Below are positions 3,165-33,899 of a stretch of DNA of 35,700 bases, piece after piece. Every line of letters begins with the position of its first letter. The stretch's first letter is position 1. Source of the stretch: a virus. Both the position numbers and the translations under genes were made by a program. Under the pieces are notes generated by a model, which was not told the origin of the DNA, did no database searches, and saw only the letters and a list, made by a program, of their open reading frames with translations. The stretch spans positions 1 through 35,700 of the IMG/VR virus record IMGVR_UViG_3300014205_000466; one strand, given 5' to 3'.

Positions 3165-3791
3165 TTAGTGGCGAGCAAGAAGTGAACACACAGATTGGGA
3201 TGGGACCACGAAGCCGAAACCGACGAATGAGCCGCCAAGGCCCATGGGAGCTGCCATGACGCCAACGGTAATGCCGATCAGGTCGCCGTCAGCATCAAAG
3301 ACGGGCCCACCGGATTGCCCCATGATCGTGGTAATGTCGGTGATATAGGCCGATTTCCACGGCCCGACTTCGCGGGGAGAACCGGCAATCTTGCCGTATG
3401 CCGAGACGAATTCCAGAGCGAGCGGATTACCTATCGAAATGATAGTTTCACCCTCACTGGCAACGCGGCATTCAAGGCGGGCCGCTCCGATGCGATCCGG
3501 CGATGTGCGCAGAAGCGCAATGTCGTATTCCTTGCTTGACCACATGACGGTTGCCGGCTGAATGCTTCCGTCAGACAGTTTGAGTGTGACGGTCTTTTCT
3601 GTTCCGACGACATGGGAGGCAGTGAGGACATAGCCATTGCCAATTGAGACGCCTGAACCATGTCCGCCTGGTAGCTTGACTTTGACGACGGCGGATAGCG
3701 TTTCGGGAGGAGGGGCTTTTGCCGAGAGCGAGAAGAACGCCACGACGATAAGCGCGGCAACGGACAACATTGCGAGGAACACACGTTTCAT
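3165..3791 (-). CDS. secreted trypsin-like (S1/S1C) serine protease
   Basis: The His/Asp/Ser triad contexts are present (LTASHVV, YDIALLR, GQSGGPVF). There is an N-terminal signal peptide (MKRVFLAMLSVAALIVVAFFSLSAKA). The start is placed at the second ATG, which has a GGAGAC RBS. Confidence 0.8.
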   Translation of the reverse strand: MKRVFLAMLSVAALIVVAFFSLSAKAPPPETLSAVVKVKLPGGHGSGVSIGNGYVLTASHVVGTEKTVTLKLSDGSIQPATVMWSSKEYDIALLRTSPDRIGAARLECRVASEGETIISIGNPLALEFVSAYGKIAGSPREVGPWKSAYITDITTIMGQSGGPVFDADGDLIGITVGVMAAPMGLGGSFVGFGFVVPSQSVCSLLARH

Positions 3792-3867
3792 TTTAGTCTC
3801 CATGTTTTGAGTATCACAAACACAGAATTTTGAGAGACAACGTGCGTTGAGTGTCGGAACCGACCGG

Positions 3868-7954: not shown

Positions 7955-8097
7955 TGACCCAAGACGAAATGGAGCGCCGGCTCGAAACTATCGACGCCAG
8001 GCTTGAAGGGATAAACCACCATACGAAGATCGCGAGCCAATACATGATGGCTCTCGTATTTCTTGTCGGTTTTGCGGTGGTTGTTTCACTGTTTTAA
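7954..8097 (+). CDS. small coiled-coil protein with a C-terminal TM anchor (47 aa)
   Basis: Its ATG shares one base (nt 7954) with the lipoprotein TGA stop (7952-7954). Sequence: MTQDEMERRLETIDARLEGINHHTKIASQYMMALVFLVGFAVVVSLF. Same architecture as 2918..3154. Confidence 0.45.
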   Translation: MTQDEMERRLETIDARLEGINHHTKIASQYMMALVFLVGFAVVVSLF

Positions 8098-9479
8098 GTG
8101 GCGTTTCCACTCAGCAGCGCTTCATTGAATTTCTTGTCTTTGTTGTTGAGTTGCTGCAACATTAGCGCTCGAATGATCGCTTCCTTGCCACCTTCGCGGA
8201 ATGGTGCCACAGGTGCCTTTTCTATCAGCGACTTTGCCAACGGGGAGTTAGCGCGAATGGCTTCATCAATCTGCGCAAGGTGATTTTTTGTCAGGGAATT
8301 TGATATTTTCTTGGATGCAACGCCAACAGCGGACGGAACAACGCCGGCAGCAAAGGCAAGAGGGTTTCCTGTGGCCTGAGCCGCCGCCGCCCCAGTGCCA
8401 AGCGCAGTAACCATATTGCCAAGGCCACCACCGCCGCCAAGAAGATTACCAATCCAACGCGTGGCGTTTTCGGTCTTTGTCCCCTTGTCGAGCAGCTTTA
8501 GGGCCTCTCTTTCTTCGGCGGAAAAGCGAGAAGCTTGTTTCTTGTCGATGAGTAGGGAAGCGATCCTTGACCGGATAGAATTTCCAAGGTTTTGCCCTGA
8601 ATTGGCGGCGTCGGCTCGCAATCCTGCCGCCTCATCGATCCCGGTAAGCGTGTTTGATTTCTTGGCTGCGGCCCAATTGGCATCTGCCGTTCGGAGAATT
8701 TGAGACGCAAGCGCGGGGTCACCAGAGATAACGGCGCCTTCAGGGGGGTTGCGCATAAAGTCGTTAAGACCCTGACGAGCAATCCTTGCCGCTTCTGCAT
8801 CGGGGGGATTGGTAAAATTGCGTGATGCGTTTCCAAGGCTTCGCTGCGCCGCTTCGAGGGAAGACAGGGGCGCGGCGACTGTTTCACCGGGTCCGGCGAC
8901 TGGAACGTCACCAAGCTTTTTGACAAGGGCGTTTGCTTTGGGGGCTGTTTCGTCAATTAGGCCGCTTTCAAAGAGTTTTCGCGCCAGATCGTCGGAGAGA
9001 TTCTTTACCGCTTCCGGGGCATAGTCAACACCCAAATCTCTTGCCTCATCATATCCTTCTCGTGCCGCCGCCTTGAGCGCTTCGGCGGACGGAATATCGA
9101 CCTGTTGACGTGCGATGTTCTTTGCTTGTCCGGGGATTGCCCTATCACCAACACGAAGGCCCGGCGTCGATGGGCTAAACGTGCCGGCAAATTCAAGCGC
9201 CCTTCCAATAAGCTCCGGCGTGTAGTTTCCGGTTCCGTCCTTCATCTGGACTTTGCCACTCATGACGTCGCCTGGAAGCATAAAGGAACGCTTGATGGGG
9301 CCGAGAAGGCCGGCATCGCTATCGAAGCTCACATTCCCGCTTTCGTCCCGGCTGAAAGGAAGGATAGAGCCTTTATATGCTTGCGACGGGGCGACGGCTT
9401 CAGCCGGCTGCGCGTTCTGCTCCTGCAAGCGCTTCCGTGCGGTGGCAATGGCAATGGCGCGTTGCTGCTCAAGTGTCAT
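8094..9479 (-). CDS. internal virion / ejection protein candidate (461 aa)
   Basis: ORF track. The start is placed at the ATG overlapping the upstream stop (ATGA at 9476-9479). It sits in the block of large genes after the nozzle-like genes. No motif was recognised. Confidence 0.45.
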   Translation of the reverse strand: MTLEQQRAIAIATARKRLQEQNAQPAEAVAPSQAYKGSILPFSRDESGNVSFDSDAGLLGPIKRSFMLPGDVMSGKVQMKDGTGNYTPELIGRALEFAGTFSPSTPGLRVGDRAIPGQAKNIARQQVDIPSAEALKAAAREGYDEARDLGVDYAPEAVKNLSDDLARKLFESGLIDETAPKANALVKKLGDVPVAGPGETVAAPLSSLEAAQRSLGNASRNFTNPPDAEAARIARQGLNDFMRNPPEGAVISGDPALASQILRTADANWAAAKKSNTLTGIDEAAGLRADAANSGQNLGNSIRSRIASLLIDKKQASRFSAEEREALKLLDKGTKTENATRWIGNLLGGGGGLGNMVTALGTGAAAAQATGNPLAFAAGVVPSAVGVASKKISNSLTKNHLAQIDEAIRANSPLAKSLIEKAPVAPFREGGKEAIIRALMLQQLNNKDKKFNEALLSGNAT

Positions 9480-11551
9480 TTCGGCCATAGCGCCCGCTCC
9501 TCTGGTGTCATTACGGCCCATACGCCGGGGTCTACGCCTTCCGGAACGCCATCCTGAGTTGGTTGCGCATTGATGGCGGGAACGCGAGCCATTGCCCCCG
9601 TTGCCGGAACGCCGTCAGTGGGTGCGACTGCTCCATCAACCTGCTCTGGCGACCACTCGCTAAACGGCCCGAAGTCGGGGATAACATCAGCGGGGTTGAT
9701 GCGGTTTCTTTCAACAATGCCGGAATACTGGCCGGCGTCTGTTTTGAACGCCTGATCGTATCCAGAAATACGGCCATATGCTTCCTTCAAGATTGCCCTG
9801 CGTGTTTCCGGTGTAAGTGCTGCGCCGCCATTGAGACTTGAAATTGTGCCCTGCAACCAATCCGGCAGAGAAGACGTGTTTTTGACCATGACCATTTCAC
9901 CCTCTCGGACGACAGAGGTCGGGTCCATGATTTTGCCGAGGCCGTAAACAAGATTGAGGTCAGACGCTCTCGTGTCGCGTCCAGCCGTTTCGTACATAGA
10001 GCGATAGATTGGCAGCGCCTGAGAAAGGTTTTTATAGCTCGGGAGGCCCTGAATTTCCTTGCGTAGATTGGAGATTTCCTTGAAATCAACCTTTGGGGTT
10101 GTCAGGCCGTCAACTTCTTCAATGTCGCCGGTGAACTTATTGAACTTCACGCCGTCCTTGTATTCCCACGCGGCCTCGGCCTTTGGCGCATCACGAACGA
10201 CAGAGATCTTTCCGGACTGATCGGCCTGATAAACGCCGGCAGGATCAAGGCCCATTGCCCTTTCCTCGTCATCGGTCAGGTTCTTCATTTTCGGCGGGTT
10301 CTTGAGCGCATCAAGGCCAAGGCGCTTTGTTTCAAGATCAAGCTGATAGACCGGATCTTGCTGCTTTAGCTGCAATTCCTTCTGTGCCTGTTCTTCCTGC
10401 ATTCGGCGCTGGATAAGAGCCTGCACAACGGCCTTTTTCGCGGGAGGGAGATACGGGTCGCTCATGACCTCGATGGCCTTCATGAGGTCAAAGTCTGCCG
10501 TTCCGGCCTGCATGGCCTGTGCGACCTGCTGGCGCGGGTCTACTGCGACCGTGCCTTTGGTTGGCATCTCGGCGGGTTGTGCCGTTGGCGTCTTGTTTGT
10601 CCTGAAATCACCGCTAACAAGTGCCTTAAGAATACCGGTTCGTCCGTCCTCTTTCTGCGGCATTGCGGGGGCTTCGCCGGCAGACGCGATCTCAACTGGA
10701 GCAACCGCTTGTTTGATCGGCTGCAATGCGTTCACCATTGCGGACTGAACGGGCTTGTTTGCAGTTGCAATCATACCGGGCTGCGCTGCGATAGCGTCCG
10801 TTGACGCCACCTGATTTGCGTTGATGCCATCCCACGCGCCGAGACCAACCCTTTTCGCCCCGTACCACGGTCTCCACCCGGTCGTCTTTGCGTTATCCAG
10901 TGCGAAGTCGATCTGTTTTTGAACGGTCGATGGGTCGCGCGGATCAAGACCGGTCTTGGCCATGAAGTCGTTGCCCATGCCCTTGGGGAAGTTCTTCCCG
11001 TCCCCGACAAGCAACTGAAACGGTCCATAGGACGGCTCGCGAATGCCGTTTTTCTTGACGTTCGATTGCCAAACCCCCGGAGCGAGCCCCTCAGACTTCG
11101 CCACTTTGACGGCAATGTCTGGGTCAATCCCGCGCTGCGTTGCCGCCTGCCGAATATAGGCTTCCATCTGACCGATATCAGACAGGTTTGCGGCTGGCTT
11201 TGCCGCATAATCGTCAATCGATCCACGATCAATCGAACGGGCGTTTTCCATTGTTCCGGCAACCGGCTCTTGCGGTGCAGCCACCGGGGCAACATCGGCG
11301 GGCTTCGTTCCGATAGATGGGCCAAACAGGTTTGCAAATGCGGAATTCGCGCTATCAATTCCGGCGCTTTCGGCTTTATCAGCCTTACCCATCATGGCCC
11401 GATAGACAATGGCGTTACCAAGGGCGTTCAGCCCTTCACCAACGTTCTGCGGGGCCTTTTGAGGTGCAAGCGCCTCAGCAATCCGGCGAAGCTTTGCAAG
11501 TTCCTGCGGCGTCTTAGGGAGGCCATCAGCGCCGAAAATAAACTGCTTCAT
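9476..11551 (-). CDS. internal virion protein with a lytic transglycosylase (SLT-like) domain
   Basis: The region GIDPDIAVKVAKSEGL...SYGPFQL...WYGAKRVG fits an SLT/lysozyme-like fold. Size and position resemble the podovirus gp16-type ejection protein. Confidence 0.7.
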   Translation of the reverse strand: MKQFIFGADGLPKTPQELAKLRRIAEALAPQKAPQNVGEGLNALGNAIVYRAMMGKADKAESAGIDSANSAFANLFGPSIGTKPADVAPVAAPQEPVAGTMENARSIDRGSIDDYAAKPAANLSDIGQMEAYIRQAATQRGIDPDIAVKVAKSEGLAPGVWQSNVKKNGIREPSYGPFQLLVGDGKNFPKGMGNDFMAKTGLDPRDPSTVQKQIDFALDNAKTTGWRPWYGAKRVGLGAWDGINANQVASTDAIAAQPGMIATANKPVQSAMVNALQPIKQAVAPVEIASAGEAPAMPQKEDGRTGILKALVSGDFRTNKTPTAQPAEMPTKGTVAVDPRQQVAQAMQAGTADFDLMKAIEVMSDPYLPPAKKAVVQALIQRRMQEEQAQKELQLKQQDPVYQLDLETKRLGLDALKNPPKMKNLTDDEERAMGLDPAGVYQADQSGKISVVRDAPKAEAAWEYKDGVKFNKFTGDIEEVDGLTTPKVDFKEISNLRKEIQGLPSYKNLSQALPIYRSMYETAGRDTRASDLNLVYGLGKIMDPTSVVREGEMVMVKNTSSLPDWLQGTISSLNGGAALTPETRRAILKEAYGRISGYDQAFKTDAGQYSGIVERNRINPADVIPDFGPFSEWSPEQVDGAVAPTDGVPATGAMARVPAINAQPTQDGVPEGVDPGVWAVMTPEERALWPK

Positions 11552-12612
11552 GCCGCAAGTTCCTTTCCGAGACCAAAGAGGCGTCCATAGTGAACACGCT
11601 TGACGCCATCTTTGCCGGTCAAGACGGCATCAGGTCGCTTTTCCTCGACTTCCTGAGCCATGACACCGATGTGCTTTTCACCGTCGTCAAACTTGCCCTT
11701 ATAGTCGTAGGCGTAGACATTGTGGCCTTCGACCTTGCCGAGCGGCTCAATGTTTTCCTTGACGCGCTCGTCCGACGCCATGATGAACGACGAACCAAGC
11801 CCGAACAGACCGCCTAGCAGACTGTTACGCTGCGCCATTTCGGCCTGCCACTGCTGCATTCGCTGGTTGTCATAGTTCGAGATAATCCCTGCCGTGTCGG
11901 TCGTCGGGATCGTCGGCATGTTTGTGCCCATGAACTGAGGCTGTGAAACCTGGCTACCAGACATCAACGCGGTAATTTCGTTGATCGGCTGGTTGCGCAT
12001 GGTCTGGCCCTCTTGGAAGGCTTGACCGTGACCGCTCAGGATCAGCTGGTTATAGGCGTCGTTGCGGTTCTGGCCTTGGCTAGCCATTTCCCGGTCATAG
12101 GCTTCGGTGCCAACCTTGATGCCCTGATTTGCCAGCCTCGTCCGCAATGCCTCGTCCTGCTGTTCAAGCATTGGGTCAAGCCGCTTCCGGCCAAGCTCCA
12201 TCAGCCGCGCTTCGGTGGCCTCGTTCGACCCGTCAAATGGCTTTGAGAGATAATCCTGCAAGAACCCGGTCTGGTTATTGGCAAGCTGCGAAAGGCCGAG
12301 CTTCGTCTGGTCCTGCTGGTCCTTGATGGCCTGCTGCGCAGCCGAAAGCGTGGTGTTGCGCGTGAATGTCGGGATTTTATAGGTCTTGTCGGTGTACGGG
12401 TCATACCAGTTATAATTTCCGGTCTGCTTGACGGTCGTCTTCCCGTCCGGCGTGATTTCGTTCACATTGCCAAGAAAAGCATTTGCGACAGATGTGCCGA
12501 CGTTCGTAGACGTGGAGGCCGCGCTTGTCTCTTTCGGATCAGTGGGTTCAGGTGCGTCCGGTTTGCCCAATGTCTCGCTCCTTCCTGAATTTCGATTTCC
12601 GCCAATCGTCAT
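11548..12612 (-). CDS. virion protein with a C-terminal peptidase-S74 intramolecular chaperone domain
   Basis: C-terminus: ASDERVKENIEPLG...VYAYDYK...IGVMAQEVEE..PDAV...V.Y (S74 autoproteolytic chaperone signature). An alternative TTG start at 12570 lies behind a GGAAGGAG RBS. Confidence 0.6.
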   Translation of the reverse strand: MTIGGNRNSGRSETLGKPDAPEPTDPKETSAASTSTNVGTSVANAFLGNVNEITPDGKTTVKQTGNYNWYDPYTDKTYKIPTFTRNTTLSAAQQAIKDQQDQTKLGLSQLANNQTGFLQDYLSKPFDGSNEATEARLMELGRKRLDPMLEQQDEALRTRLANQGIKVGTEAYDREMASQGQNRNDAYNQLILSGHGQAFQEGQTMRNQPINEITALMSGSQVSQPQFMGTNMPTIPTTDTAGIISNYDNQRMQQWQAEMAQRNSLLGGLFGLGSSFIMASDERVKENIEPLGKVEGHNVYAYDYKGKFDDGEKHIGVMAQEVEEKRPDAVLTGKDGVKRVHYGRLFGLGKELAA

Positions 12613-13033
12613 CGGTCAGGGAATAGAGGATGCCGTCCTCGTTCCTGCCGTACAGTCGCGGAATGATTTGATGGTCAAAGCCGTAAGCGGTGAAGATCCG
12701 CTTCAAGTGGTTCTGTCTCGGATCGGCTGAGACGCGGGAAACCAGCATCTGGACGCCAACGTCTATAAATGGGTAGTCGAACATGGCCTTGAGTGTTTGT
12801 CTGGTCAGCCACCGCCTCGACGTGGCCGCGCCGGAAAGTTCGATAACACCTGCATCCGGTTCCCAATCGTGATAGACCATGCATGCGATGATTTCGCCCT
12901 TGTCGAAGACGCCCATGCAGACGCCCTTGGGAAGGGTCTTATGGGTCTTATCTGGCCAAATCTGGCGGGATGTCCATTCTACCATTGCGTTGCGGAGATC
13001 TGGGTTTTTCGATGTTCCCCAGACAATATCCAT
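12548..13033 (-). CDS. GNAT-like acetyltransferase (161 aa) embedded in the virion module
   Basis: The start ATG (13031-13033) shares one base (nt 13033) with the upstream TGA stop (13033-13035). The pattern IACMVYHDW....IELSGAATSRRWLTRQTLKAMFDYPF...V...NHLKRIFTAYGF is consistent with the GNAT core. Confidence 0.5.
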   Translation of the reverse strand: MDIVWGTSKNPDLRNAMVEWTSRQIWPDKTHKTLPKGVCMGVFDKGEIIACMVYHDWEPDAGVIELSGAATSRRWLTRQTLKAMFDYPFIDVGVQMLVSRVSADPRQNHLKRIFTAYGFDHQIIPRLYGRNEDGILYSLTDDDWRKSKFRKERDIGQTGRT

Positions 13034-14598
13034 CAAACCATGACTCCGCCTGTTTCGTAGATCACGTCGGACGCGATAAGCTCTATTCGAGGAAATGGCG
13101 TAATTCCGCATGTGATCTGGACTTGTGGGGAAATAATAAAGCCTGACTTGCCGACCGATTGCCATTTGGTCGTCACCGTTGATGTTCCGGTGGCGTCCCA
13201 GAGTGAGACGTCCCATTCGGCAGAATCCCACTCGTCCGTCGTGTAATCGGCCACGGACGATGGCGCGGTTGGCAGGGTCACGTTGTAATTGACCGATGCC
13301 GAAACCTTGGACGTAAAGGGGACAGATGCGATGAAAACCGACCTGATGGAATGAATGATCTTCGTCGCGCCTGGGCTTCTCAAGTGGTCAGGAAGGCCGA
13401 CATATGTGCATGTGTACGGTTCGCCGTCATCGGATCCACCGGTTTCCATGCGATAAACGCACCCATCATTGCTGCCGAAATAGCCGTGGTCGTCATATAG
13501 ACCAACGCATCGCGTGTTCCAGTTGGTGAACTTCGCCCATGCCCCGGTTTCCAGATTGGCAACGAAACAATAAGGCTCGACGCTCGTGCTCACCACCGGC
13601 AGGCTTACCACCATCATGTTGTTGGTCGGCCACTTGAGAATTTCCCACGGCATTGTTTTGCGGGCGGAAACTTCCGTCTTCCATTCCGGCTCAATGTTCT
13701 TTGTTACGGCAGACAAGGACAGCGCCGCGGCGTCCTTGTTGACGGCCATAGAGAGAGGGACAATCCCGTCTTCTGTAGCAATGAGCGGTTCGCCGCCCGC
13801 CATCATCCATGCGTTCATGCCCATGGGCGGGGTGATCTTGTAGACCCCGACCTTTGAAAATCCGCTCGCTGATGATGGGTCTGTTCCCTGATAGACGGCC
13901 ACCTCTCCCGTGGACGACATGAAAAAACACTTGTCGTCCAGCCCGTCACCGCTATCGAGCGACCACTTTCCGCCGAACAGAAGCACCCCGCCATCCTGAA
14001 ACACGCCCGCCAGGCTGAACGATGTCAACGCCCCGTTGATGCTGTCAACGGGCAGATACCACGCCTTCATGGTGTCCTTCTGGACGTACCAGAGACGGCT
14101 TGCGTAGGTCCAGACAAACGACAGGTCTTCAGGCGTTGCCAGCCCGGTAAAGGCGTGGTCGGCCCATGTCGTCCCGTCGAAGTAAAGCGGAGTGTCCGCC
14201 CCATTGACGACAGAGATAAAGTCACCGCCCGCCGTGCCGAATTGCGCCGTGGCGTAATATCCAGACGTTTGGCCGGAAACGTCTGCCGTGGGGATTGTGT
14301 CGGCGTCGATGATGGACGAAACATCAAAAATGTTTGTCTCATCTGATGCAAAAAACTTTTCATTCGAGCCGGATTTATAGCTGAACAGCCGCAAGACCGG
14401 GCCTGTAGATATGGTCGCATATTTCTGCGCGCCGCCGCGAACGCGAACGCTTGTTAGCGTCGGAAACATGTTTTCCAGTACGCGCGCGCCGCCCGGCTTC
14501 GAATTGGCCAAGGGCTCGTTAACGATCCATCCGCGAACGGCTGGCTGGATTGTGTATGGTCTGGACTGTGCTCGGCCTTTGGTGACGGGCATCCGCAT
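13033..14598 (-). CDS. virion structural protein (nozzle / tail tubular B-like candidate, 521 aa)
   Basis: Assigned by position and size in a tail-less (no tape measure, no sheath) structural module. No motif was recognised. Confidence 0.4.
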   Translation of the reverse strand: MRMPVTKGRAQSRPYTIQPAVRGWIVNEPLANSKPGGARVLENMFPTLTSVRVRGGAQKYATISTGPVLRLFSYKSGSNEKFFASDETNIFDVSSIIDADTIPTADVSGQTSGYYATAQFGTAGGDFISVVNGADTPLYFDGTTWADHAFTGLATPEDLSFVWTYASRLWYVQKDTMKAWYLPVDSINGALTSFSLAGVFQDGGVLLFGGKWSLDSGDGLDDKCFFMSSTGEVAVYQGTDPSSASGFSKVGVYKITPPMGMNAWMMAGGEPLIATEDGIVPLSMAVNKDAAALSLSAVTKNIEPEWKTEVSARKTMPWEILKWPTNNMMVVSLPVVSTSVEPYCFVANLETGAWAKFTNWNTRCVGLYDDHGYFGSNDGCVYRMETGGSDDGEPYTCTYVGLPDHLRSPGATKIIHSIRSVFIASVPFTSKVSASVNYNVTLPTAPSSVADYTTDEWDSAEWDVSLWDATGTSTVTTKWQSVGKSGFIISPQVQITCGITPFPRIELIASDVIYETGGVMV

Positions 14599-15297: not shown

Positions 15298-16005
15298 TCA
15301 AGCGGCCTTGTTCTTGGATGCCAGCGCGGCGTTAAGCTCATCGGCCTTCTGCACGAGCGTTTCATGGCTGCACTTGTGGTGCGGCTTCTCCCCGCCCTGT
15401 TCCTCGATCCAGAGCCGGATTGTGTCGTCATCCCAATCAGCGAACGGCGAAGCCGATACATTGAACGAAGCCGATGCGCCATTGACTTTGGCCATCAACT
15501 CGTCAAGCTGCCGGCGCATTTCTGCGTTCTCTGCCTCAAGTCGGTTCAGTGCCGTATTGTCGGTGGATTTCGCCAGGAACTGCTCGGCCTGCGTCTTGAG
15601 CGCACGAGCGCCCATGCCAAGCTTCTGAAGCATCGACCCGTCAAGACCGGCCAATCCTTCGACCGTGTGGATGTTGGAGGCGTTGAGTTCGGCAATCTTG
15701 GCCTGGGAAAGGCCGAGTGCTTCGAGCGGCGAGCCGGTGCCACGATAGGCCATATTCGCCTTGAATGCCTCGTAGTGCTTCGGGAATTGCTGCGCATAGG
15801 TCATGCGCTCATTGGTGAGTGGATCGCGCCGCGAGCCGGTCGAGAGCGCTGGCGCAACGAGCACATTGTGCTTGTCACCCACGAAACGGATGCGCACGAA
15901 TTCTTTATCCTCGAAAATCGGCCTGCCCTGTTCGGCTGACAGCCGATCGTTCTTCTCGGTGTCGGTGTAGAATTCAACATGAAGATGGTTTGTCGGTTCA
16001 GACAT
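15298..16005 (-). CDS. hypothetical structural-module protein (235 aa) with a helix-hairpin-helix-like middle and a HeH/SAP-like C-terminus
   Basis: ORF track. The motifs are only loosely recognised (LGLSQAKIAELNASNIHTVEGLAGL; C-terminal TIRLWIEEQGG). Confidence 0.4.
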   Translation of the reverse strand: MSEPTNHLHVEFYTDTEKNDRLSAEQGRPIFEDKEFVRIRFVGDKHNVLVAPALSTGSRRDPLTNERMTYAQQFPKHYEAFKANMAYRGTGSPLEALGLSQAKIAELNASNIHTVEGLAGLDGSMLQKLGMGARALKTQAEQFLAKSTDNTALNRLEAENAEMRRQLDELMAKVNGASASFNVSASPFADWDDDTIRLWIEEQGGEKPHHKCSHETLVQKADELNAALASKNKAA

Positions 16006-16006
16006 T

Positions 16007-17404
16007 TTAGGCCCTTTCTGAGAGGTTGCGAGTTACGAAAAAGCAGGACGCATTCTGGCGGTCCTGTTGCCATATGATCGTTGCGCCGATAGACTGGAAT
16101 AATTCTGCCCACCAGACATGGGGTTTGACGGTGCAGTGGAGTCTTTGCCCGATGACATCACCGAACTTGTCCTGAACCGTCGAGATCTGGAAAAACACCT
16201 TGTTCGATGCCTCAAGAATGTTCCGGACTACCGTTTCTGCGTCTTTTTCGGGGATATGTTCCATCACGTCGGCACAAATCCCGAACGGCGAACGCATCGG
16301 CATTGGATGCGTCATATCCCATTCGAGGAACGGCAAGTTCTTTGCTTCGTCATCGCGGCAATTATCCGCAAAATCGACCATGAACACATCGTGGCCGGAC
16401 TTTGAAAGCGCAATGGATGCCTTGCCGGTGCCGCATCCGAAGTCAACGATAAGACCGTCTGGCTTTGCGACCTCAAGAAACCGAGGGACGATTTCCTCGC
16501 CTGGGGAAAAGTCGCGGTATCCGTCGAACTGCCACATGAGGCGGTATTTGTCGCGCTCGGTCAGGTGCGCGGGCGGGGTGTTATACATGGCCGGCAAAAG
16601 CCCATCACCATGAACGACCACTTCACAGCCTTCTTGATTGAGGGCCTGTGCTGTGATCTGGAATTTCTCGGCCTGCGCCTTCATGGCAACGCTTGATCGG
16701 TATGTCTTTCCTGCCCACTCAACCTCGACCGCAGGAATGAATTTATTCATCGGTTGACTGTATGCGTGGCTTTCGTCGCCACGGTGAGAACTGTCATAGC
16801 CGAAACAGTGGATTTCGCGATATCCGAGAACATACGCTAGGCACAGGGCCGAATTACCGACCGAGGCACCGCCACCGACCAGCGCGTAACCGCCGCGCTT
16901 GACCTTATCTTCTGGAAACAGATCGTCCATATCGTCAATGGCGAGGTGCCACAGCGCGACGCGAGACCCGGAAGATATTGCCGCCGCAAGCGTGGATGGA
17001 TCTACCTGTGAGGCGATAAGGAGGTGGCTAGCATTGCAATCTACGAGCGTTGATGTCTCTTGCTTCGCGTCGGCAATAACCTGATAGTTGACTGCTATTC
17101 CATGTTCATGAAGGAACTTCGATGCGGCATTCATAGCAAAGACGGTCGCGCCACCCTCAACCAACAACCTTATTTCATCGAGGTTGTCAGCAACGGAAGG
17201 ACCGCCGCCGACAAGAATTGCCGGACATTCATGAGCATTCTCGAACTGAACCCAATCGAGCGGAAGCGCCGAATTTGTCCCGATATTCCTACGCAAAACA
17301 TCATCCGACGTATTGCAGAGCACAAGAACCGGGATGATAAGCGGTGCGCTTGCGTGGGGGTTCTGCACGTTCATCTGATAGATGTCGGACTTTGGCGAGG
17401 TCAT
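16007..17404 (-). CDS. fusion protein: Maf-like/MptE-like (DUF115) putative glycosyltransferase domain plus a class I SAM-dependent methyltransferase domain
   Basis: The N-terminal part has AILVGGGPSV and GGGASVGNSALCLAYVLGYREIHCFGYD (DUF115/motility-accessory-factor signatures). The C-terminal part has VDFGCGTGK (motif I) and ADVMEHIP. RBS is GGAGAAAGC-ATG. Confidence 0.65.
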   Translation of the reverse strand: MTSPKSDIYQMNVQNPHASAPLIIPVLVLCNTSDDVLRRNIGTNSALPLDWVQFENAHECPAILVGGGPSVADNLDEIRLLVEGGATVFAMNAASKFLHEHGIAVNYQVIADAKQETSTLVDCNASHLLIASQVDPSTLAAAISSGSRVALWHLAIDDMDDLFPEDKVKRGGYALVGGGASVGNSALCLAYVLGYREIHCFGYDSSHRGDESHAYSQPMNKFIPAVEVEWAGKTYRSSVAMKAQAEKFQITAQALNQEGCEVVVHGDGLLPAMYNTPPAHLTERDKYRLMWQFDGYRDFSPGEEIVPRFLEVAKPDGLIVDFGCGTGKASIALSKSGHDVFMVDFADNCRDDEAKNLPFLEWDMTHPMPMRSPFGICADVMEHIPEKDAETVVRNILEASNKVFFQISTVQDKFGDVIGQRLHCTVKPHVWWAELFQSIGATIIWQQDRQNASCFFVTRNLSERA

Positions 17405-17427
17405 GCTTTCTCCAATTGCATGAGGAA

Positions 17428-17449
17428 GGGGCGGACCGAAACCCGCCCC
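17428..17449 (-). other. GC-rich stem-loop (GGGGCGG-N8-CCGCCCC) between the decoration-like gene and the Maf/MTase gene
   Basis: Seen directly. On the minus-strand RNA it is followed by UUCCUC, not a clean U-tract, so it is at best a partial terminator or processing site. Confidence 0.4.
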
Positions 17450-17457
17450 ATCTGATT

Positions 17458-17952
17458 TTAGGAAACGTCCGAAGGATCGTGAGGACGGTTGATAGCGATT
17501 GCCACGGTCGTAACGCCGGACTTTGCCGAGGCAACGGTGCGGACGACTGCGCCCTGAATAACCGTTCCGGTGGCAACCGCAACAGCAAGACCGGAGCCAG
17601 CACCAAGGCCAGAACCATCAGCAAACGAGACGGCTGCCGATTTAGCGGCAACGGCCATGCCGCTGATCTGATACCAGCCAAACTGGTCAGCCACGTTTGC
17701 CGACATGGCAACAGCGAGCGGACGGGACGGGCCAACAACAGCCGACGAGTCAAGCGCCGTCTGCCATGTGTCGTCATAGTTGACGATATAGCCGGCTTCG
17801 GTGGAGGCAACGCCCTTGAGGTAGATGAATTCACCGACGCCAAGAGTGGGGTCTTTCGCTCGCACAATCGTACCAAGCGCGTGCTTGGCAGTGGTCGAAG
17901 TGTCAGCGATTGCCTGACCCATGAGCATGTTTTCTGCGATGGTATAAGCCAT
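17458..17952 (-). CDS. head decoration / accessory capsid protein candidate (164 aa)
   Basis: Strong RBS (AAGGAGG). It lies immediately after the major capsid gene and is Ala/Gly/Val/Thr-rich. Confidence 0.4.
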   Translation of the reverse strand: MAYTIAENMLMGQAIADTSTTAKHALGTIVRAKDPTLGVGEFIYLKGVASTEAGYIVNYDDTWQTALDSSAVVGPSRPLAVAMSANVADQFGWYQISGMAVAAKSAAVSFADGSGLGAGSGLAVAVATGTVIQGAVVRTVASAKSGVTTVAIAINRPHDPSDVS

Positions 17953-17965
17953 GGTCAGGCCCTCC

Positions 17966-18973
17966 TTACGATGCAGGGGTGCTGTCGTACATCTTGGCGA
18001 TGTGCAGCGGGTTGTTGAGGGTCAGGTTGCCGAAGAAACCGATGTGCTGGACAATGGCGTCCTGATTGATCGGAGTCTGCTTGCCGCCGAACTTCACGAA
18101 GTTACGGTCGGGATGGTAGCGGAACTTCAGCGCCGAGGTGTCGATGAAGTAGGACGTATTCGCCGGCATTGCCGAGCCGATACCGCCCTCAAGAACCACG
18201 TCAACGGACTTGCCGGCACCGTAGTACTTGAGATTGGTGAAGCCGACCTTGCCGAGTTCGCTTTCGTCGTTGATCCGCTGGATGGCAACCGTTGCGGCGG
18301 TGTAGGCGATGTAATGCTCCTGCGAGCATACAATCACGTTAGGCCCCTTGGTGCCACGGCTGCGGGCGATCATGATGTTATCGAAGATCGTCTTGACGGT
18401 GGTAGATGAAACCTGCGTGATTCCCGAGAACGCGGAGTGCGCGTCATAGGTCGTGGTGCGCCAACTGGCGTTATCCACGCGAGAAATGCCGCCATATGTG
18501 CCGGAGTTAGTCGTGGTCGGAATGGCAAGCTGCAATCCGCCAATCTGGTTCGTTTCAGTGCCGTCCGAATGGAGGTCCTCAACAAAGCGGTCCTGAAGTT
18601 CGGTTTCAGCCGCCATGATGTGTTCTTCCATGATGTCCTTCAGCTGGTTGGAGCCAGAGTTCTTCAGGATATCTTCACCGGAAAGCGTGACCGACACTGC
18701 GGCGAGCTTCGGGGTGAATTCGGCGTCGTTGAACAGTTCAGCCGGCGTGGGGTTGAGGAACTGGTAGCCCGAATAACGGGTATAAGATCCGGTTTCGTTG
18801 TAGAGAAGTCGCTCGCGGATCGTCGGACCGGAGAAGGTCTTGAACTGGCCGCGCTTCTTCATGAGGTAGAGGATAGCGTTGGAATTGGAAACAAGGTCTG
18901 CGTAACCCTGAGACCGATCTTCCAGCGCCAGCGAAAACGCTTCTTGCAAGCGCTCGGTGGAAGTCAAAGCCAT
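17966..18973 (-). CDS. major capsid protein
   Basis: 335 aa with a GGAGG RBS. It directly follows the scaffold-like gene and has typical capsid-like composition. Confidence 0.75.
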   Translation of the reverse strand: MALTSTERLQEAFSLALEDRSQGYADLVSNSNAILYLMKKRGQFKTFSGPTIRERLLYNETGSYTRYSGYQFLNPTPAELFNDAEFTPKLAAVSVTLSGEDILKNSGSNQLKDIMEEHIMAAETELQDRFVEDLHSDGTETNQIGGLQLAIPTTTNSGTYGGISRVDNASWRTTTYDAHSAFSGITQVSSTTVKTIFDNIMIARSRGTKGPNVIVCSQEHYIAYTAATVAIQRINDESELGKVGFTNLKYYGAGKSVDVVLEGGIGSAMPANTSYFIDTSALKFRYHPDRNFVKFGGKQTPINQDAIVQHIGFFGNLTLNNPLHIAKMYDSTPAS

Positions 18974-20010: not shown

Positions 20011-20037
20011 TGTGTTGTCCTGTCTGAGAGGATTGCG

Positions 20038-28169: not shown

Positions 28170-28540
28170 GCGCCACCGCCGATCTCGTGAACCAAAACAA
28201 CAACGGGCGGTCCACTTGCCAACCATTCGTATGAAAGCTTGCGGACGTATCTGTTGCTGTCGTCCTCGATGACGCCGGCTTTGACCAGCACGTCCAAAAT
28301 GCTCTTGTCGAGGTTGCCGGCGTCCCTCGCCCGCTTGTCGGGAGCAACGAGGCCGACCGATATGCTAACCTCACCCTTAATCGGATGGACGCGCTGGGCT
28401 TTGATTTCCCATAGCGCTTGTGTGGTCCAATCCTTGTAACGTTTCGTCGCGACACGGCCACGGCCCGGAGCATTCGTAAAACAGGCTGACAGCGGCGGCG
28501 GAAATGGAAGCTCGATGCGCCTTGATGATCCGTTGATCAT
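28166..28540 (-). CDS. rusA: RusA-family Holliday junction resolvase
   Basis: Typical RusA size, with the motif RDAGNLDKSILDVLVKAGVIEDDS. Confidence 0.8.
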   Translation of the reverse strand: MINGSSRRIELPFPPPLSACFTNAPGRGRVATKRYKDWTTQALWEIKAQRVHPIKGEVSISVGLVAPDKRARDAGNLDKSILDVLVKAGVIEDDSNRYVRKLSYEWLASGPPVVVLVHEIGGGA

Positions 28541-29391
28541 ATCAATTCCTCCTGCACTGGCTTTGGTGCTGGCTGGGTGATGAACATGTCTGGCTGGGTA
28601 TATGCCTTGCGGATACGCTCACATGCGATGTCGAAAAACTTCTCGTCCCGTTCAATGCCAATAAATGAACGGCCACTCTGCACACACGCCACACCCGTAG
28701 TGCCACTGCCCATGAATGGGTCTAGAACCTTCTGCCCTTCACGTGTGAAGTCCCGAACAATTTCAAGCATAAGGCCGCGCGGCTTCTCTGTTGGATGCCG
28801 CCCATCACGGTCTTTCGCATTGGTCAGATACGTATATATTCCACGCTTACCGCCTGAGTTCCATGAGCGGTATCCAGATGCGCACCATGCGGTTACTGCG
28901 CATTCGAACCCGCGAGCAGCGCCTTGCCCATTCATGCGCGGCGTACTGTCAGGCTTTACCCATGCTAGGCATGTGTCATACTTTGCGCCACATGCTTGCA
29001 GCTCATCGCGCCACGCCCTCACACCTTCCGCGAGGGTAAACAGGATTGCCCACCCATTCGAGAGCGCGACTACCCTATGAACAATGTCGGCCCTATTGGA
29101 GTTCACACCTTCAAAGCCGAGGTCATCGACCATATAGCGTCCATCATTACGGCGAATTCGGCCAATGGCCTTGTGAAGTTCGTCCTCATACGGCGGGTCG
29201 CTGATTACGTGGTCGACCGGCTGCAACACTCCCATAACTTCGAGAGAGTCGCCAAGGTACAGTTCACAAGCGCCGATGACCTCAACACGTCTGGCTGGTG
29301 GGCAGCGCTCCTTGAGAAGCTCGGCACGTTTAGCAGCAATAGCGACGTTGTAGCTCTCGAAGCCGTCGCGTCTGGCGTCGTACTCTGTCAT
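28537..29391 (-). CDS. DNA methyltransferase, beta-class N6-adenine/N4-cytosine (DPPY before FxGxG)
   Basis: Motifs ISDPPYE (motif IV), HPTEKP and DPFMGSGTTGVA (motif I) appear in the beta-class order, as in CcrM-type enzymes. Confidence 0.85.
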   Translation of the reverse strand: MTEYDARRDGFESYNVAIAAKRAELLKERCPPARRVEVIGACELYLGDSLEVMGVLQPVDHVISDPPYEDELHKAIGRIRRNDGRYMVDDLGFEGVNSNRADIVHRVVALSNGWAILFTLAEGVRAWRDELQACGAKYDTCLAWVKPDSTPRMNGQGAARGFECAVTAWCASGYRSWNSGGKRGIYTYLTNAKDRDGRHPTEKPRGLMLEIVRDFTREGQKVLDPFMGSGTTGVACVQSGRSFIGIERDEKFFDIACERIRKAYTQPDMFITQPAPKPVQEELI

Positions 29392-31813: not shown

Positions 31814-32591
31814 TTCCTCGGCTCCTGCTTGCTATGCTTTCAGACAAAATTTGCATTGCTCGTTCATGCCGTTCGGCGTGGGCGGATTGCCTTGGAGGCG
31901 CTTGTGCTCGCTGCTTGTCCCGCTCCAGCCATTCCGGCTTCACGGTCGTCCAGTTGCGCAGGATCATTTCATCCGCAGCGGCATTCGGATCTGGACAGGC
32001 TTTGAGTTGGTCGGCGAGGAGCTTGATTGCGTAGTCGGTATTCTTCGCCCGCTTCGATTTGCGGTGATCGAGAACAGCCTTGCATCGGTCAGCATCGAGA
32101 ACGTCCGAGAGGATCGAGAGCGCATCGCGCGGCTTAGTATCTTCGTCAGAAGATACGTTATTATCTTCTCTTATCTTCTCTTTACGCGCGCTATGCTTGA
32201 GGCTGGCTGCATCTACGTCGTTGTTTTTATTGGATGCAGACCGATTTTCGGCGGATTTTTCTCCACCTTTCGCTCCACTTTCAGCAAAGTTTCGCGCACG
32301 TTCCGCGTCAATTTCGATCTCTTTTTCTGCGCGAAAGTTCGACAAAACTCCGTCGTAAGCCTGCAGTTTTCCGAGTTCGATCAGCCGATCGCGGAGAGCC
32401 GACCACTTGCGGACAGACACGTTGCAGATGCCGGAAAGCCATCTGGCGTCATCTGGGATCGGGCCTTGATGATCATAGATAAGGTCGAGACAAAGCGAAT
32501 ACGCGCCCTTCTCTTCGAGGGTCATTCCCATCGTGTCGGCAATGAAATCTGCACCACAACGGCGATACCAGACGCGGGACGGCTTCTTCAT
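31746..32591 (-). CDS. DUF1376-type phage replication/primosome-associated protein
   Basis: The N-terminus (YRRCGADFIADTMGMTLEEKGAYSLCLDLIYDHQGPIPDD..WLSGICNVSVRKW) matches the DUF1376 pattern, which is common at phage replication modules of Alphaproteobacteria. Confidence 0.65.
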   Translation of the reverse strand: MKKPSRVWYRRCGADFIADTMGMTLEEKGAYSLCLDLIYDHQGPIPDDARWLSGICNVSVRKWSALRDRLIELGKLQAYDGVLSNFRAEKEIEIDAERARNFAESGAKGGEKSAENRSASNKNNDVDAASLKHSARKEKIREDNNVSSDEDTKPRDALSILSDVLDADRCKAVLDHRKSKRAKNTDYAIKLLADQLKACPDPNAAADEMILRNWTTVKPEWLERDKQRAQAPPRQSAHAERHERAMQILSESIASRSRGNEPVGENTIDLGTGDWSPFGTA

Positions 32592-33031
32592 GCTGATACG
32601 CCCTCAAAGATTTCAGGCATAAGCTTCTGCCGCGGTATCCCGACAACGCGCTCGATCTCGACGGCGCGTTGTGCCGTCAGGAAACCGCGCTCCCAACGGA
32701 GAACGGTCGATTTGTTTACAGGCGGGGAAAACAGCCGCCCGAACTCTTCGAGAGACATTCCGCCGTTCTGCTGCCGATATGCGGTGATGTGTGATGTGTT
32801 TTCTAAGCTGGTGATAGGGCCGGTAGACAGATCGACGCGCCCCTTGCCGACGTTGCAGTCTTCGCAAGATGTCGTCAGATTGTCGAAATTGTTCGTGCCG
32901 CCACCGCAGATAGGAATAATATGATCAACGTGAAGAACGACACTCGGAGAACGGCCACCACAATATGTGCACGTAAACCGGTCGCGCTTAAAAACATCAA
33001 AGCGAATGCGCTTGGTGATTGGCTTTCTCAT
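32588..33031 (-). CDS. HNH endonuclease domain fused to a Cro/YdaS-like HTH domain
   Basis: N-terminus: CTYCG...HVDHIIPICGGGTNNFDNLTTSCEDCNVGK (HNH). C-terminus: MSLEEFGRLFSPPVNKSTVLRWERG..TAQRAVEIERVVGIPRQKLMPEIF (Cro/YdaS-type HTH). Confidence 0.75.
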   Translation of the reverse strand: MRKPITKRIRFDVFKRDRFTCTYCGGRSPSVVLHVDHIIPICGGGTNNFDNLTTSCEDCNVGKGRVDLSTGPITSLENTSHITAYRQQNGGMSLEEFGRLFSPPVNKSTVLRWERGFLTAQRAVEIERVVGIPRQKLMPEIFEGVSA

Positions 33032-33850: not shown

Positions 33851-33864
33851 CACGTTTCGGCGTG
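33851..33864. promoter_or_regulatory. operator-like palindrome CACG-TTTCGG-CGTG, just upstream of the -35 of the rightward promoter
   Basis: Seen directly. Confidence 0.4.
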
Positions 33865-33871
33865 TATGTGC

Positions 33872-33899
33872 TTGACGTGCACGCCATGGCGTGTAATTG
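33872..33899 (+). promoter_or_regulatory. rightward early promoter (PL analog): TTGACG-N16-TAATTG, with operator CACGCCATGGCGTG in the spacer
   Basis: Seen directly. The 20-mer 33878-33897 is the reverse complement of 33241-33260 with a single mismatch. Confidence 0.55.

Follow-up and report, generated by a model that had tools for sequence, protein, structure and literature searches.

The question raised by this locus is what an enzyme that joins a Maf-like domain to a methyltransferase does in the head module of a phage, and on which molecule it acts. The window, that is, the whole stretch of viral DNA analysed here (35,700 nucleotides, IMG/VR record IMGVR_UViG_3300014205_000466), carries the gene between the genes for the major capsid protein (MCP) and a decoration-like protein on one side and the gene for an SU10-type adaptor on the other, as a preliminary description of this DNA had recognised. 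The gene and its parts are as follows.

16007..17404, minus strand: open reading frame (ORF) of the bifunctional enzyme, MptE-like/Maf-like plus class I SAM methyltransferase, 465 aa (ORF list, Pfam, AF2, Foldseek, homologues)
16571..17404, minus strand: Maf-like (PF01973) N-domain, aa 1-278 (PDB profile search, residue conservation)
16007..16570, minus strand: class I SAM methyltransferase C-domain, aa 279-465 (Pfam, phrog_24759, Foldseek)
17410..17413, minus strand: Shine-Dalgarno sequence GGAG of the enzyme gene, 5 nt upstream of the start (read from the sequence)

The ORF starts with ATG, and all of the motifs that had been read from it are present (ILVGGGPSV at aa 63, GGGASVGNSALCLAYVLGY at 177, CFGYD at 200, VDFGCGTGK at 320 and DVMEHIP at 379). 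The slight A/T-richness that had been supposed for the gene is not significant: its GC content is 0.536 and the average of the window 0.548, which places the gene at the 24th percentile among segments of the same size and inside 1 SD. More than 120 full-length homologues with identities of 57-73% were collected. No cultured phage with the gene was found (megablast, 0 matches; tblastn, 2 partial matches to the methyltransferase only), and the nearest isolates by MCP, Rhizobium phage RHph_I3_18 and Brucella phage Tb, are both without it. The AF2 model of the enzyme has neither a signal peptide nor a membrane segment.

The assignment of the N-terminal part to the DUF115 family was borne out by an HMM search, in which PF01973 (MptE-like) matched aa 54-207 with E = 5.9e-16 and 59.2 bits (gathering cut-off, 34.6 bits) over profile positions 22-168 of 171; the same profile was matched by 75 of 77 sampled relatives. 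The structure predicted with AF2 (pLDDT 86, pTM 0.74) had Maf 5MU5 as its top Foldseek match in the PDB (E = 6.5e-10 across 247 columns). By HMM and predicted fold, the N-domain is a member of the PF01973 (MptE-like/MAF_flag10/DUF115) superfamily. A profile search of the PDB gave Maf 5MU5 with E = 3.3e-16 and 62 bits, archaeal MptE 8SD5 with E = 4.3e-4 and 22.7 bits, and Cst-II with E of about 0.5-2; as judged from these sequence scores, the N-domain resembles Maf, a flagellin glycosyltransferase, much more closely than MptE, the pterin kinase of archaea. In the NCBIfam search of the enzyme nothing reached the cut-off, and the sole hint was PseD. The residues GGGPS (S70), N92, D112, GGG178-179, G202-x-D204-S205 and H213-A-Y215 are invariant or near-invariant among N-domains that are 28-63% identical, and a set of 150 representatives shows them near-invariant as well. 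Both aspartates, D112 and D204, are invariant. In alignments with Maf, D204 falls on the Asp of GVD (5MU5) and H213 on a His. The conserved Asp of the MAF_flag10 domain is essential in S. oneidensis (D247 in Maf-1, D261 in Maf-2).

PF01973 is named for a pterin diphosphokinase, and the N-domain could instead be a (pyro)phosphokinase or a nucleotidyl-type transferase whose substrate is a small molecule or the hydroxyls of a protein, the methyltransferase working in the same pathway; an auxiliary metabolic enzyme, a step of DNA hypermodification and a novel phospho- or nucleotidyl-modification of protein would be examples. The profile match to 8SD5, the generic nucleotide-binding, Rossmann-type fold and a window that encodes no donor-sugar pathway speak for such an activity. 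We consider it improbable, because the E value of the domain is lower for Maf than for MptE by twelve orders of magnitude, the best fold match is Maf and the only NCBIfam hint PseD, the window has no folate, pterin or dUMP-hydroxymethylase gene, and the enzyme lies in the head module while the replication module has a DNA methyltransferase of its own (28537-29391). DNA hypermodification and pterin metabolism in particular were rejected, since hydroxymethylase, folate and sugar genes are absent from the window.

The C-terminal methyltransferase had also been identified correctly: Methyltransf_23 (28.2 bits) and Methyltransf_25 (28.1 bits) matched aa 304-412, both just above the gathering cut-off of 27 bits. 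Motif I (DFGCGTG at 321-327) and D344 are invariant, and further motifs are D344-F-A-D-N, DVMEHIP and a subfamily-specific leader, ERDKYRLMW..YR..SPGE. Foldseek matched this half of the protein to class I O-methyltransferases (Plu4895, ChlM, DnrK and TehB; E = 5e-9). By motif I, the acidic residue of beta-2 and the fold, the C-domain is a class I SAM-dependent methyltransferase. Stand-alone homologues of this domain adjoin capsid genes in lambda-like and T7-like head modules (L022, L014 and L015), where they have no MptE-like partner. Cellular stand-alone homologues occur in Chlamydiota, and their neighbours (GH3, UCH) are uninformative about function. The domain order is inverted in one relative of the fusion (L012), and MptE-like relatives are separately fused to methyltransferases of at least three families, Methyltransf_24, Methyltransf_25/23 and FkbM-type, and one of them to GT2. 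FkbM-type and Methyltransf_24 enzymes are typically small-molecule or sugar O-methyltransferases.

The gene just upstream encodes a small protein, referred to here as dec164.

17458..17952, minus strand: dec164, 164-aa small post-MCP virion (decoration-like) protein (phrog_29386, hhalign, co-inheritance)
17458..17658, minus strand: C-terminal module of dec164, aa 99-164, Ser/Thr-rich, ending in ...AINRPHDPSDVS (co-varies with the enzyme)

This protein matched phrog_29386, 'virion structural protein', with E = 7.7e-27, and its core is homologous to post-MCP proteins of ~95 aa, including gp18 of Brucella phage Tb (hhalign, 96.8%, E = 2.8e-10). Its fold resembles those of capsid decoration/cement proteins weakly and not significantly (best E = 0.6), and no solved homologue was found in the PDB by fold or profile. 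The C-terminal module has an S+T fraction of 0.219 versus 0.130, in a comparison that ignores phylogeny. The module is strongly conserved, with many invariant residues other than Ser and Thr, K104 and K144 being invariant or near-invariant, and it was predicted with low pLDDT. The low pLDDT may point to folding that depends on assembly, rather than to an exposed linker.

We compared more than 200 related loci. The gene is absent from the nearest relatives by MCP (L068-L070, 87-89% identical to the window), in agreement with its earlier description as an inserted gene, and it is scattered over the MCP tree, where it occurs in at least 12 lineages, with frequent gain and loss. A conserved core gene, as three syntenic loci had suggested, was rejected when MCP-based sampling gave nearest relatives without the enzyme. 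At the level of the aligned sequences, its patchy presence and discrete mosaic boundaries are those of an accessory (moron-like) cassette. The segment and its landmarks are as follows.

15973..17652, minus strand: mosaic segment comprising the dec164 tail, terminator and enzyme, without DNA homology in L069/L070 (blastn)
17428..17449, minus strand: GC-rich hairpin, GGGGCGG-N8-CCGCCCC, upstream of the enzyme gene (read from the sequence)
16012..16029, minus strand: leader motif GCAACCTCTCAGAAAGGG (consensus GCACCCTCTCAGAMAGGA), just upstream of the start of p235 (2 matches versus 0.04 expected)

The blastn boundaries against the enzyme-less L069/L070 fall at 17653 and ~15972, the breakpoint at 17653 lying inside dec164, and L002, whose MCP is 36% identical, has DNA homology to the window only across 17883-16250. 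The hairpin exists as described previously, but it does not mark an insertion, since almost every relative, whether enzyme-positive or enzyme-less, has an equivalent behind the dec gene; in Brucella phage Tb, a terminator is annotated at the equivalent position. An insertion scar was rejected on the same ground, and the hairpin is an ordinary backbone terminator-attenuator behind the capsid/decoration genes, not specific to the enzyme gene. Because the enzyme gene lies downstream of this capsid-operon terminator, lower amounts of the enzyme than of the structural proteins are expected. The leader motif, which follows the terminator in enzyme-less loci, now forms the last seven codons of the enzyme ORF and marks where the inserted segment ends on the right.

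In every architecture, and in more than 100 loci, the gene immediately before that of the enzyme encodes the post-MCP protein. Between phages sharing the cassette, dec164 is 54-73% and the enzyme 50-60% identical, while the flanks are 26-47% identical. In Mantel tests, the divergence of the enzyme followed that of dec164 (r = 0.73, p = 5e-4), with values of 0.25 for p235 and 0.01-0.08 for the MCP; the MCP gave 0.79 with the adaptor and 0.07 with dec164. When dec164 homologues were picked blind to the enzyme, the next gene was the enzyme in all four cases, and other enzyme architectures followed a dec164-family gene in two of two. The dec164 tail is 71-85% identical to the tails of enzyme-positive phages whose MCPs are only 27-45% identical, and 19-22% identical to those of the enzyme-less nearest relatives; the Ser/Thr-rich C-terminal third is exchanged exactly where the enzyme is missing. 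In the genomes compared, the enzyme and dec164 are co-inherited as a mobile two-gene cassette between phages with 26-47% identical capsid, adaptor and nozzle proteins. The pattern is that of a functional or genetic module, and such genomic evidence does not single out the modified molecule. The earlier guess that the adjacent Thr/Ser/Ala-rich protein of 164 aa is the partner of the enzyme gains support from the co-inheritance and from the exchange of the tail where the enzyme is absent.

Note that in a second large subgroup (group B) an N-terminally extended MptE-like enzyme follows the tail-less, ~95-aa form of the post-MCP protein, and the dec164 tail therefore cannot be the universal acceptor. 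The extension of ~230 aa was considered as a GT-A domain because of a DxD-like motif, which found no support from Pfam, the PDB or annotated homologues. The pairing in group B would suit a scheme in which Maf-type glycosylation and methylation are directed at another virion protein, for example the MCP, with dec164 as a recruiting adaptor or as a co-selected protein. In the same direction, the conservation of the dec164 tail resembles that of an interaction surface, Maf-2 requires a small cis-encoded adaptor, GlfM (10.1101/2023.12.03.569772), and the glycans of mycobacteriophages are carried by major capsid and tail proteins (Freeman 2023, as cited in PMC11256854). As for the MCP itself, the divergence of the enzyme is uncorrelated with it, as the Mantel values above indicate, and the occurrence of the cassette with such different MCPs is hard to square with MCP-specific recognition. 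We regard an acceptor other than dec164 as unlikely, while granting it some weight.

The pairing might also be a hitch-hiking or moron effect, with the terminator as a favoured landing site and with a host envelope glycan or LPS (superinfection exclusion, receptor masking) or flagellin as the target. This explanation would account for the patchy distribution with its gains and losses, for the position of the enzyme gene right after a strong terminator, and for the other, unrelated small ORFs that fill the slot of the enzyme in some relatives; moreover, the characterised PF01973 glycosyltransferases target flagellin. Adjacency is, however, insufficient for co-inheritance: the two outer neighbours, p235 next to the enzyme gene and the MCP gene next to dec164, follow the backbone instead. 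In addition, the mosaic breakpoint lies within dec164, the tail travelling with the enzyme, and the N-only cassettes are translationally coupled to dec164 by a TAATG stop/start overlap. Temperate phages are the typical carriers of seroconversion genes, whereas there was no prophage copy of the enzyme among the 62 confirmed genome matches listed. Prophage-borne lysogenic conversion was rejected, since among the matches listed full-length genome copies lay only on short or phage-sized MAG contigs; the bins of these MAGs suggest Rhodobacteraceae, Caulobacterales or Rhodospirillales as candidate hosts. The enzyme has no flagellin-binding domain, signal peptide, membrane segment (in the model) or GlfM-like neighbour, and host flagellin, which the preliminary description had offered as a target, is disfavoured by the absence of flagellin-binding modules and by the tie of the gene to a capsid-module gene in all architectures. 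Hitch-hiking with a host target has, in our estimate, a low probability.

The reading that we prefer, tentatively and at a little under an even chance, is that of a phage Maf-type O-glycosyltransferase and methyltransferase that modifies the capsid-associated dec164, a reading in which we infer both the chemistry and the acceptor. The enzyme would be soluble, late-expressed and non-essential, and would modify the dec164 encoded just upstream. Its Maf-like domain would transfer a host-made, CMP-activated (non)ulosonic acid to Ser/Thr of the flexible C-terminal module of dec164. Since there are no sugar-biosynthesis genes within the window, the donor must be host-made; it could be CMP-Kdo, or CMP-Pse or CMP-Leg in hosts that have them. 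CMP-Kdo is present in essentially every Gram-negative host. Mafs are able to use CMP-Kdo and CMP-Neu5Ac (10.1101/2020.06.03.131540; PMC11339370). The fused methyltransferase would methylate the transferred sugar or, less likely, protein, and the head surface would then bear an acidic glycan capped with methyl. The probable benefit would be a changed virion surface chemistry (shielding, less non-productive adsorption or aggregation, or adhesion).

Alternatively, the two domains may act separately on protein, with O-glycosylation of dec164 and methylation of side chains (Lys) or of the C-terminus of dec164 or the MCP. Some flagellins are both glycosylated and lysine-methylated. Aeromonas flagellin is both glycosylated and methylated (PMC9290775). 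The conserved K104 and K144 of dec164 would agree with this, and the stand-alone methyltransferases that adjoin capsid genes without a glycosyltransferase partner imply that methylation may be directed at something other than the transferred sugar. Yet three different methyltransferase families have been recruited independently, which agrees with a simple acceptor common to all of them, for instance a sugar hydroxyl, and the nearest folds are small-molecule O-methyltransferases; separate action is given only a slim chance here.

Extended from this window to the related loci, glycosylation of dec164 would make the cassettes a widespread phage system, in which a decoration protein with an acceptor tail is accompanied by its own Maf-type glycosyltransferase, usually methyltransferase-fused, and host CMP-ulosonic acids (e.g. 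CMP-Kdo) are turned into methylated acidic sugars on heads. We put this forward as a possible, and rather doubtful, generalisation. To our knowledge, glycosylation of virion proteins in phages has been demonstrated in very few cases, and it bears on immune recognition of therapeutic phages, adsorption and particle stability. If true, a Maf-family enzyme would for the first time act on something other than flagellin, which would extend the substrate range of Maf/DUF115, and sialic-acid-like or Kdo glycosylation would be new for a phage capsid. A self-contained module of acceptor tail and enzyme that remodels the head surface would be present in hundreds to thousands of environmental podophages, and the orphan MptE-like and methyltransferase genes of uncultured phage genomes would be explained. 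It would also be a clean case of an enzyme-substrate pair moving jointly among phage backbones with capsids ~30% identical, and the portable acceptor and enzyme could serve as a compact, soluble, orthogonal tag for cytoplasmic O-glycoengineering.

The closest known systems are the Mafs (motility accessory factors), O-glycosyltransferases that attach nonulosonic acids to Ser/Thr of flagellin, such as those of Magnetospirillum magneticum (PDB 5MU5), Shewanella (Maf-1/Maf-2) and C. botulinum. The PF01973/MAF_flag10 catalytic domain of the phage enzyme is homologous to theirs by sequence, at the E value of 3.3e-16 given above, and by fold; like a Maf, the phage enzyme is a cytoplasmic soluble protein whose gene adjoins that of its acceptor or adaptor (a predicted acceptor in the phage), and the predicted acceptor site is Ser/Thr in an exposed region of a structural protein that self-assembles. 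Only the central domain is shared, however, the N-terminal Rossmann-like domain of Maf being missing. Flagellin-binding modules, either a C-terminal helical/TPR domain or GlfM, confer the acceptor specificity of Mafs (PMC11339370, 10.1101/2023.12.03.569772). The phage enzyme lacks these and has a SAM methyltransferase fused instead, and no gene for a four-helix bundle like GlfM lies beside it, its neighbours being dec164 and p235. Unlike Mafs of flagellar glycosylation islands, it is encoded within a phage head module at every locus, with a capsid-module protein as its partner, and the window has no linked genes for nonulosonic-acid (Pse/Leg) biosynthesis. Archaeal MptE (6-hydroxymethyl-7,8-dihydropterin pyrophosphokinase, 8SD5) shares the Pfam family, the nucleotide-binding fold and GGxPS- and GxD-type motifs. 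It differs in being a single domain of ~240 aa in a cofactor pathway, whereas the phage enzyme is fused to a methyltransferase and has no pterin-pathway gene nearby.

Two viral systems would work alike by analogy, with non-homologous glycosyltransferases and with genomic coupling to a capsid-module protein as the evidence in the present case. In the chlorovirus PBCV-1, A064R is a GT-GT-methyltransferase for the glycan of the major capsid protein, the loss of which alters surface antigenicity and not viability (PMC9614988). It resembles the phage enzyme as a viral multidomain glycosyltransferase and SAM-methyltransferase that builds and methyl-caps a capsid-protein glycan, and it differs in that its glycosyltransferase domains are GT-A DXD rhamnosyltransferases using UDP-Rha, its glycan is N-linked to the MCP of a giant eukaryotic virus, and its function is experimentally proven. 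The mycobacteriophages Che8 and Rita (Freeman et al. 2023, as cited in PMC11256854) have other GT families and no Maf-type domain; their genes lie outside the head module, near the right end of the genome, and their acceptor is the MCP or tail tube C-terminus. Like the role proposed here, the non-essential glycosyltransferases of these phages decorate capsid proteins with a glycan shield.

The enzyme gene lies within an SU10-like podophage structural module, entirely on the minus strand, with the order terminase, portal, scaffold, major capsid protein (MCP), dec164, enzyme, p235, SU10-type adaptor, nozzle, N-acyltransferase and fibres. Here, dec164 is the decoration-like protein following the MCP, and p235 is the 235-aa downstream neighbour of the enzyme. 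The remaining window genes encode replication functions, a DNA methyltransferase, an HNH nuclease and a lysin. Sugar, nonulosonic-acid, pterin and hydroxymethylase genes are all absent from the window, and no integrase was recognised among the window ORFs scanned.

Features of the window
3165-3803, minus strand, trypsin-like peptidase
8094-9521, minus strand, 475-aa ORF of the tail/fibre region
12548-13231, minus strand, acyl-CoA N-acyltransferase-like gene
16007-17404, minus strand, enzyme ORF, 465 aa, ATG start
16012-16029 and 20018-20035, minus strand, conserved leader motif GCACCCTCTCAGAMAGGA, about 18 nt
17458-17952, minus strand, dec164, 164-aa "virion structural protein"
17966-18973, minus strand, MCP
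28537-29391, minus strand, N6/N4 DNA methylase
32588-33031, minus strand, HNH endonuclease
33862-34677, plus strand, YdcK-type beta-solenoid/bactofilin-like protein

The DNA methylase, HNH, YdcK-type and peptidase genes belong to early and accessory regions. The N-acyltransferase-like gene (phrog_4470, E = 3e-36) is part of the tail module, where it is flanked by the nozzle gene and the fibre genes. Rhizobium phage RHph_I3_18 and Brucella phage Tb have kept it too, and its product may be another enzyme of the structural operon that modifies the virion or the host. The weak match of the 475-aa ORF to phrog_21712 'major head protein' (E = 7e-14) probably reflects a misnamed PHROG or a shared domain, the true MCP being that at 17966-18973.

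A GGAG ribosome-binding site is located 5 bases upstream of the enzyme ATG. The motifs from which the preliminary description had recognised a DUF115 domain fused to a methyltransferase (MTase) were all found at the positions it gave, and Pfam searches matched both parts: PF01973 (MptE-like, formerly MAF_flag10/DUF115) at aa 54-207 (E = 5.9e-16, well above gathering), and Methyltransf_23 and Methyltransf_25 at aa 304-412 (just over gathering). The AlphaFold2 model, based on an alignment of 35 homologues, was confident (pLDDT 86, pTM 0.74). In the PDB fold search its top match (E = 6.5e-10) was 5MU5, the Maf glycosyltransferase of Magnetospirillum, and the next matches, to the C-terminal half, were many class I O-methyltransferases. 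Searched as a profile, the N-domain by itself gave E = 3.3e-16 against 5MU5, compared with 4.3e-4 for the pterin kinase MptE of archaea (8SD5) and about 1 for Cst-II sialyltransferases, which places it in the Maf branch of the PF01973 superfamily. GGGPS, N92, D112, GGG178-179, GxD204-S205 and H213-A-Y215 are (nearly) invariant in N-domains down to 28% identity.

Metagenomic homologues that cover the full length (57-73% identity) number more than 120. At E<=1e-30 the N-domain family has 250 representative clusters, and at E<=1e-10 it has 1002. Among the matches listed, "genomes" with the enzyme are only short or phage-sized MAG contigs, and nucleotide and translated BLAST found no cultured phage carrying it; the closest isolates by MCP, RHph_I3_18 and Tb, have the same module without the enzyme. 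Three syntenic loci had suggested a core gene, which was ruled out by 80 relatives sampled via the MCP. Because the enzyme has a patchy occurrence in at least 12 lineages of the MCP tree of these relatives and is missing from the closest ones (L068-L070, MCPs 87-89% identical), it is an accessory gene with frequent gain or loss.

In all loci examined (>100), the MptE-like gene directly follows a small post-MCP protein and precedes p235 and the adaptor, confirming in the window and its relatives the placement between capsid/decoration and adaptor genes. This position is constant for N-domain plus MTase forms, the N-domain alone, N-terminally extended forms, a 924-aa MptE-MTase-MptE protein and a 560-aa form. 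The post-MCP proteins constitute a single family with a core of about 95 aa ending in a G-W-Y/F motif, to which the annotated virion structural protein gp18 of Tb belongs; some carry a C-terminal extension, within the same family by hhalign (96.8%, E = 2.8e-10). An apparent rule that the enzyme never lies beside the short (~95-aa) form was dropped as a sampling artefact once a wider set was scanned. For the window-type enzyme, the link is specific to the C-terminal extension of dec164 (tail, aa 99-164), as seen in the following loci.

Identity of related loci to the window
L070: MCP 89%, dec164 core 67%, tail 19%, enzyme absent
L002: MCP 36%, dec164 core 69%, tail 79%, enzyme 60%
L003: MCP 27%, dec164 core 66%, tail 71%, enzyme 60%
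L007: MCP 45%, dec164 core 60%, tail 82%, enzyme 57%

The flanks of the last three (scaffold, p235, adaptor, nozzle) are merely 26-47% identical to the window. DNA homology with L069/L070 ends at 17653, shortly beyond the codons for GWYQISG, and returns near 15972, and that with L002 is limited to 17883-16250. In N-only cassettes, the dec164 stop and enzyme start overlap (TAATG). In a prospective test, dec164 homologues chosen solely by dec164 similarity had the enzyme as the next gene in four of four cases. One relative has an HNH_3 homing-endonuclease-like gene between adaptor and nozzle (L228:7455-7904), another sign of module mosaicism.

Mantel tests on pairwise identities among enzyme-carrying loci (Spearman r; n = 20 subset except for the tail, n = 23) correlated the enzyme with dec164 (r = 0.73, p = 5e-4) and its tail (r = 0.69, p = 5e-4), more weakly with p235 (r = 0.25, p = 0.004) and the adaptor (r = 0.24, p = 0.014), and not significantly with the MCP (r = 0.08). 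The MCP was correlated with the adaptor (r = 0.79, p = 5e-4) and p235 (r = 0.50, p = 5e-4), and not significantly with dec164 (r = 0.07). Since p235 is the other immediate neighbour of the enzyme and dec164 that of the MCP, the pairing of dec164 and enzyme is not due to adjacency alone, and the correlations resolve two evolutionary modules, the backbone and the dec164-enzyme cassette.

dec164 matched a PHROG of virion structural proteins (E = 7.7e-27), and its AlphaFold2 model has a β-rich core (pLDDT 75-90 at aa 15-110) and a low-confidence tail (aa 113-164). Foldseek gave nothing significant (best E = 0.6); its top list consisted mostly of capsid decoration/cement proteins (YSD1, Sf11, HFTV1, TW1, lambda, SHP, Pam3 and the phi29 gp8.5 base), a resemblance of the model to decoration/cement folds that is suggestive only. 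The Ser/Thr fraction is 0.219 in enzyme-linked tails versus 0.130 in others, a statistic that ignores kinship. Enzyme-linked tails end in ...INRPH-x-x-S-x-(V/I)-(S/T), and those of other subtypes have runs such as TTVTSTTSTVTVT. dec164 is up to 73-80% identical across phages with MCPs merely 27-45% identical; if capsid-bound, it would have to rely on a part of the MCP that is very conserved, or else bind elsewhere.

The hairpin at 17428-17449, previously associated with the enzyme insertion, does exist, but is not specific to it: almost all relatives, those without the enzyme included, have an equivalent GC-rich stem-loop with a T-rich tail 3' of the dec gene, at the position of the annotated terminator of Tb. 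It is a post-capsid attenuator of the phage backbone, and the place of the enzyme downstream of it implies sub-stoichiometric expression. The supposed A/T-richness of the gene did not hold (GC 0.536 versus window mean 0.548; 24th percentile of equal-sized windows, not significant). The leader motif (two window matches versus 0.04 expected) lies directly upstream of the scaffold and p235 start codons and is conserved in relatives, also 3' of the terminator in L068-L070, L074-L081 and L089. Because it normally comes after the terminator in phages without the enzyme, and in the window supplies the seven final codons of the enzyme ORF directly before the p235 start, the right edge of the insert is fixed. 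The motif may serve the late operon as a common element for translation initiation or regulation.

Several features of relatives link the two domains: they are in reverse order in L012, and some close relatives, L071 among them, have no MTase. Fusions among 77 relatives sampled involved Methyltransf_24 (11), Methyltransf_25/23/11/12 (about 9), FkbM-type Methyltransf_21 (6) and GT2 (once). That different MTase families were recruited repeatedly and independently argues for a mechanistic link between methylation and the MptE-like reaction, with a methylated sugar as the simplest reading. This pattern speaks against direct methylation of a protein by the MTase half, which is nevertheless possible, as homologues of this domain alone adjoin capsid or terminase/portal genes.

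Homologues of the MTase domain
L022:9983-10528, after a lambda-type gpD/gpE pair, prophage on a 3.7-Mb Rhodospirillaceae contig
L014:9437-10585, between a T7-like MCP and tail tubular protein A
L015:9986-10570, between terminase and portal

These are stand-alone or differently fused (29-43% identity) and accompany unrelated capsid types, a hint that methyltransferases associated with capsids form a broader class. Chlamydiota MAGs (L017:9989-10603, L018, L020, L021) have stand-alone homologues of the MTase subfamily (about 200 aa) with an ERDKYR...YR..SPGE leader in a non-phage chromosomal context, neighbouring GH3 and a UCH-type protease. A second large MptE-like group (L147:8997-10454, L113:7955-9475, L148-L224, and hundreds more in IMG/VR) has an N-terminal extension of about 230 aa with a DxD-like motif (YFDLDVCITG / FMGLDTIITG). 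This extension, also found as a separate protein of about 200-220 aa, had no homologue in Pfam, PDB or among annotated proteins, and may represent an additional transferase domain not recognised so far.

The enzyme is thus a two-domain Maf-like and MTase protein, accessory, encoded downstream of the capsid terminator and co-inherited with dec164, particularly its tail. We infer that it is a virus-encoded virion modification enzyme: the Maf-like domain would O-glycosylate Ser/Thr of the dec164 tail with a CMP-ulosonic acid made by the host, the donor pathway not being phage-encoded, the MTase would cap the transferred sugar, and the modified decoration protein would alter head-surface chemistry. 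CMP-Kdo is near-universal in Gram-negative hosts. According to two reports, Mafs accept CMP-Kdo and CMP-Neu5Ac (10.1101/2020.06.03.131540; PMC11339370). The preliminary description had named the adjacent decoration-like protein or host flagellin as targets. The former has strong comparative-genomic support from the co-inherited cassette, its role as acceptor and the chemistry remaining inferential. Flagellin, the substrate of characterised Mafs, is disfavoured: canonical acceptor specificity comes from a TPR/helical domain or a GlfM adaptor (PMC11339370; 10.1101/2023.12.03.569772), and both are absent from the enzyme and its neighbours, which argues against flagellin and fits another, co-transferred acceptor.

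Full-text literature searches did not turn up any description of a DUF115, MptE-like or Maf enzyme in connection with phage virions. Although its N-domain is homologous to Mafs, the enzyme is without two defining Maf features, the flagellin-binding module and the flagellar-island context, and is therefore not filed as a Maf. The nearest analogues by function, neither of them homologous, are the capsid glycosylation of mycobacteriophages (Freeman 2023, via PMC11256854) and PBCV-1 A064R, a GT-GT-MTase protein responsible for both assembly and methylation of the capsid glycan (PMC9614988).
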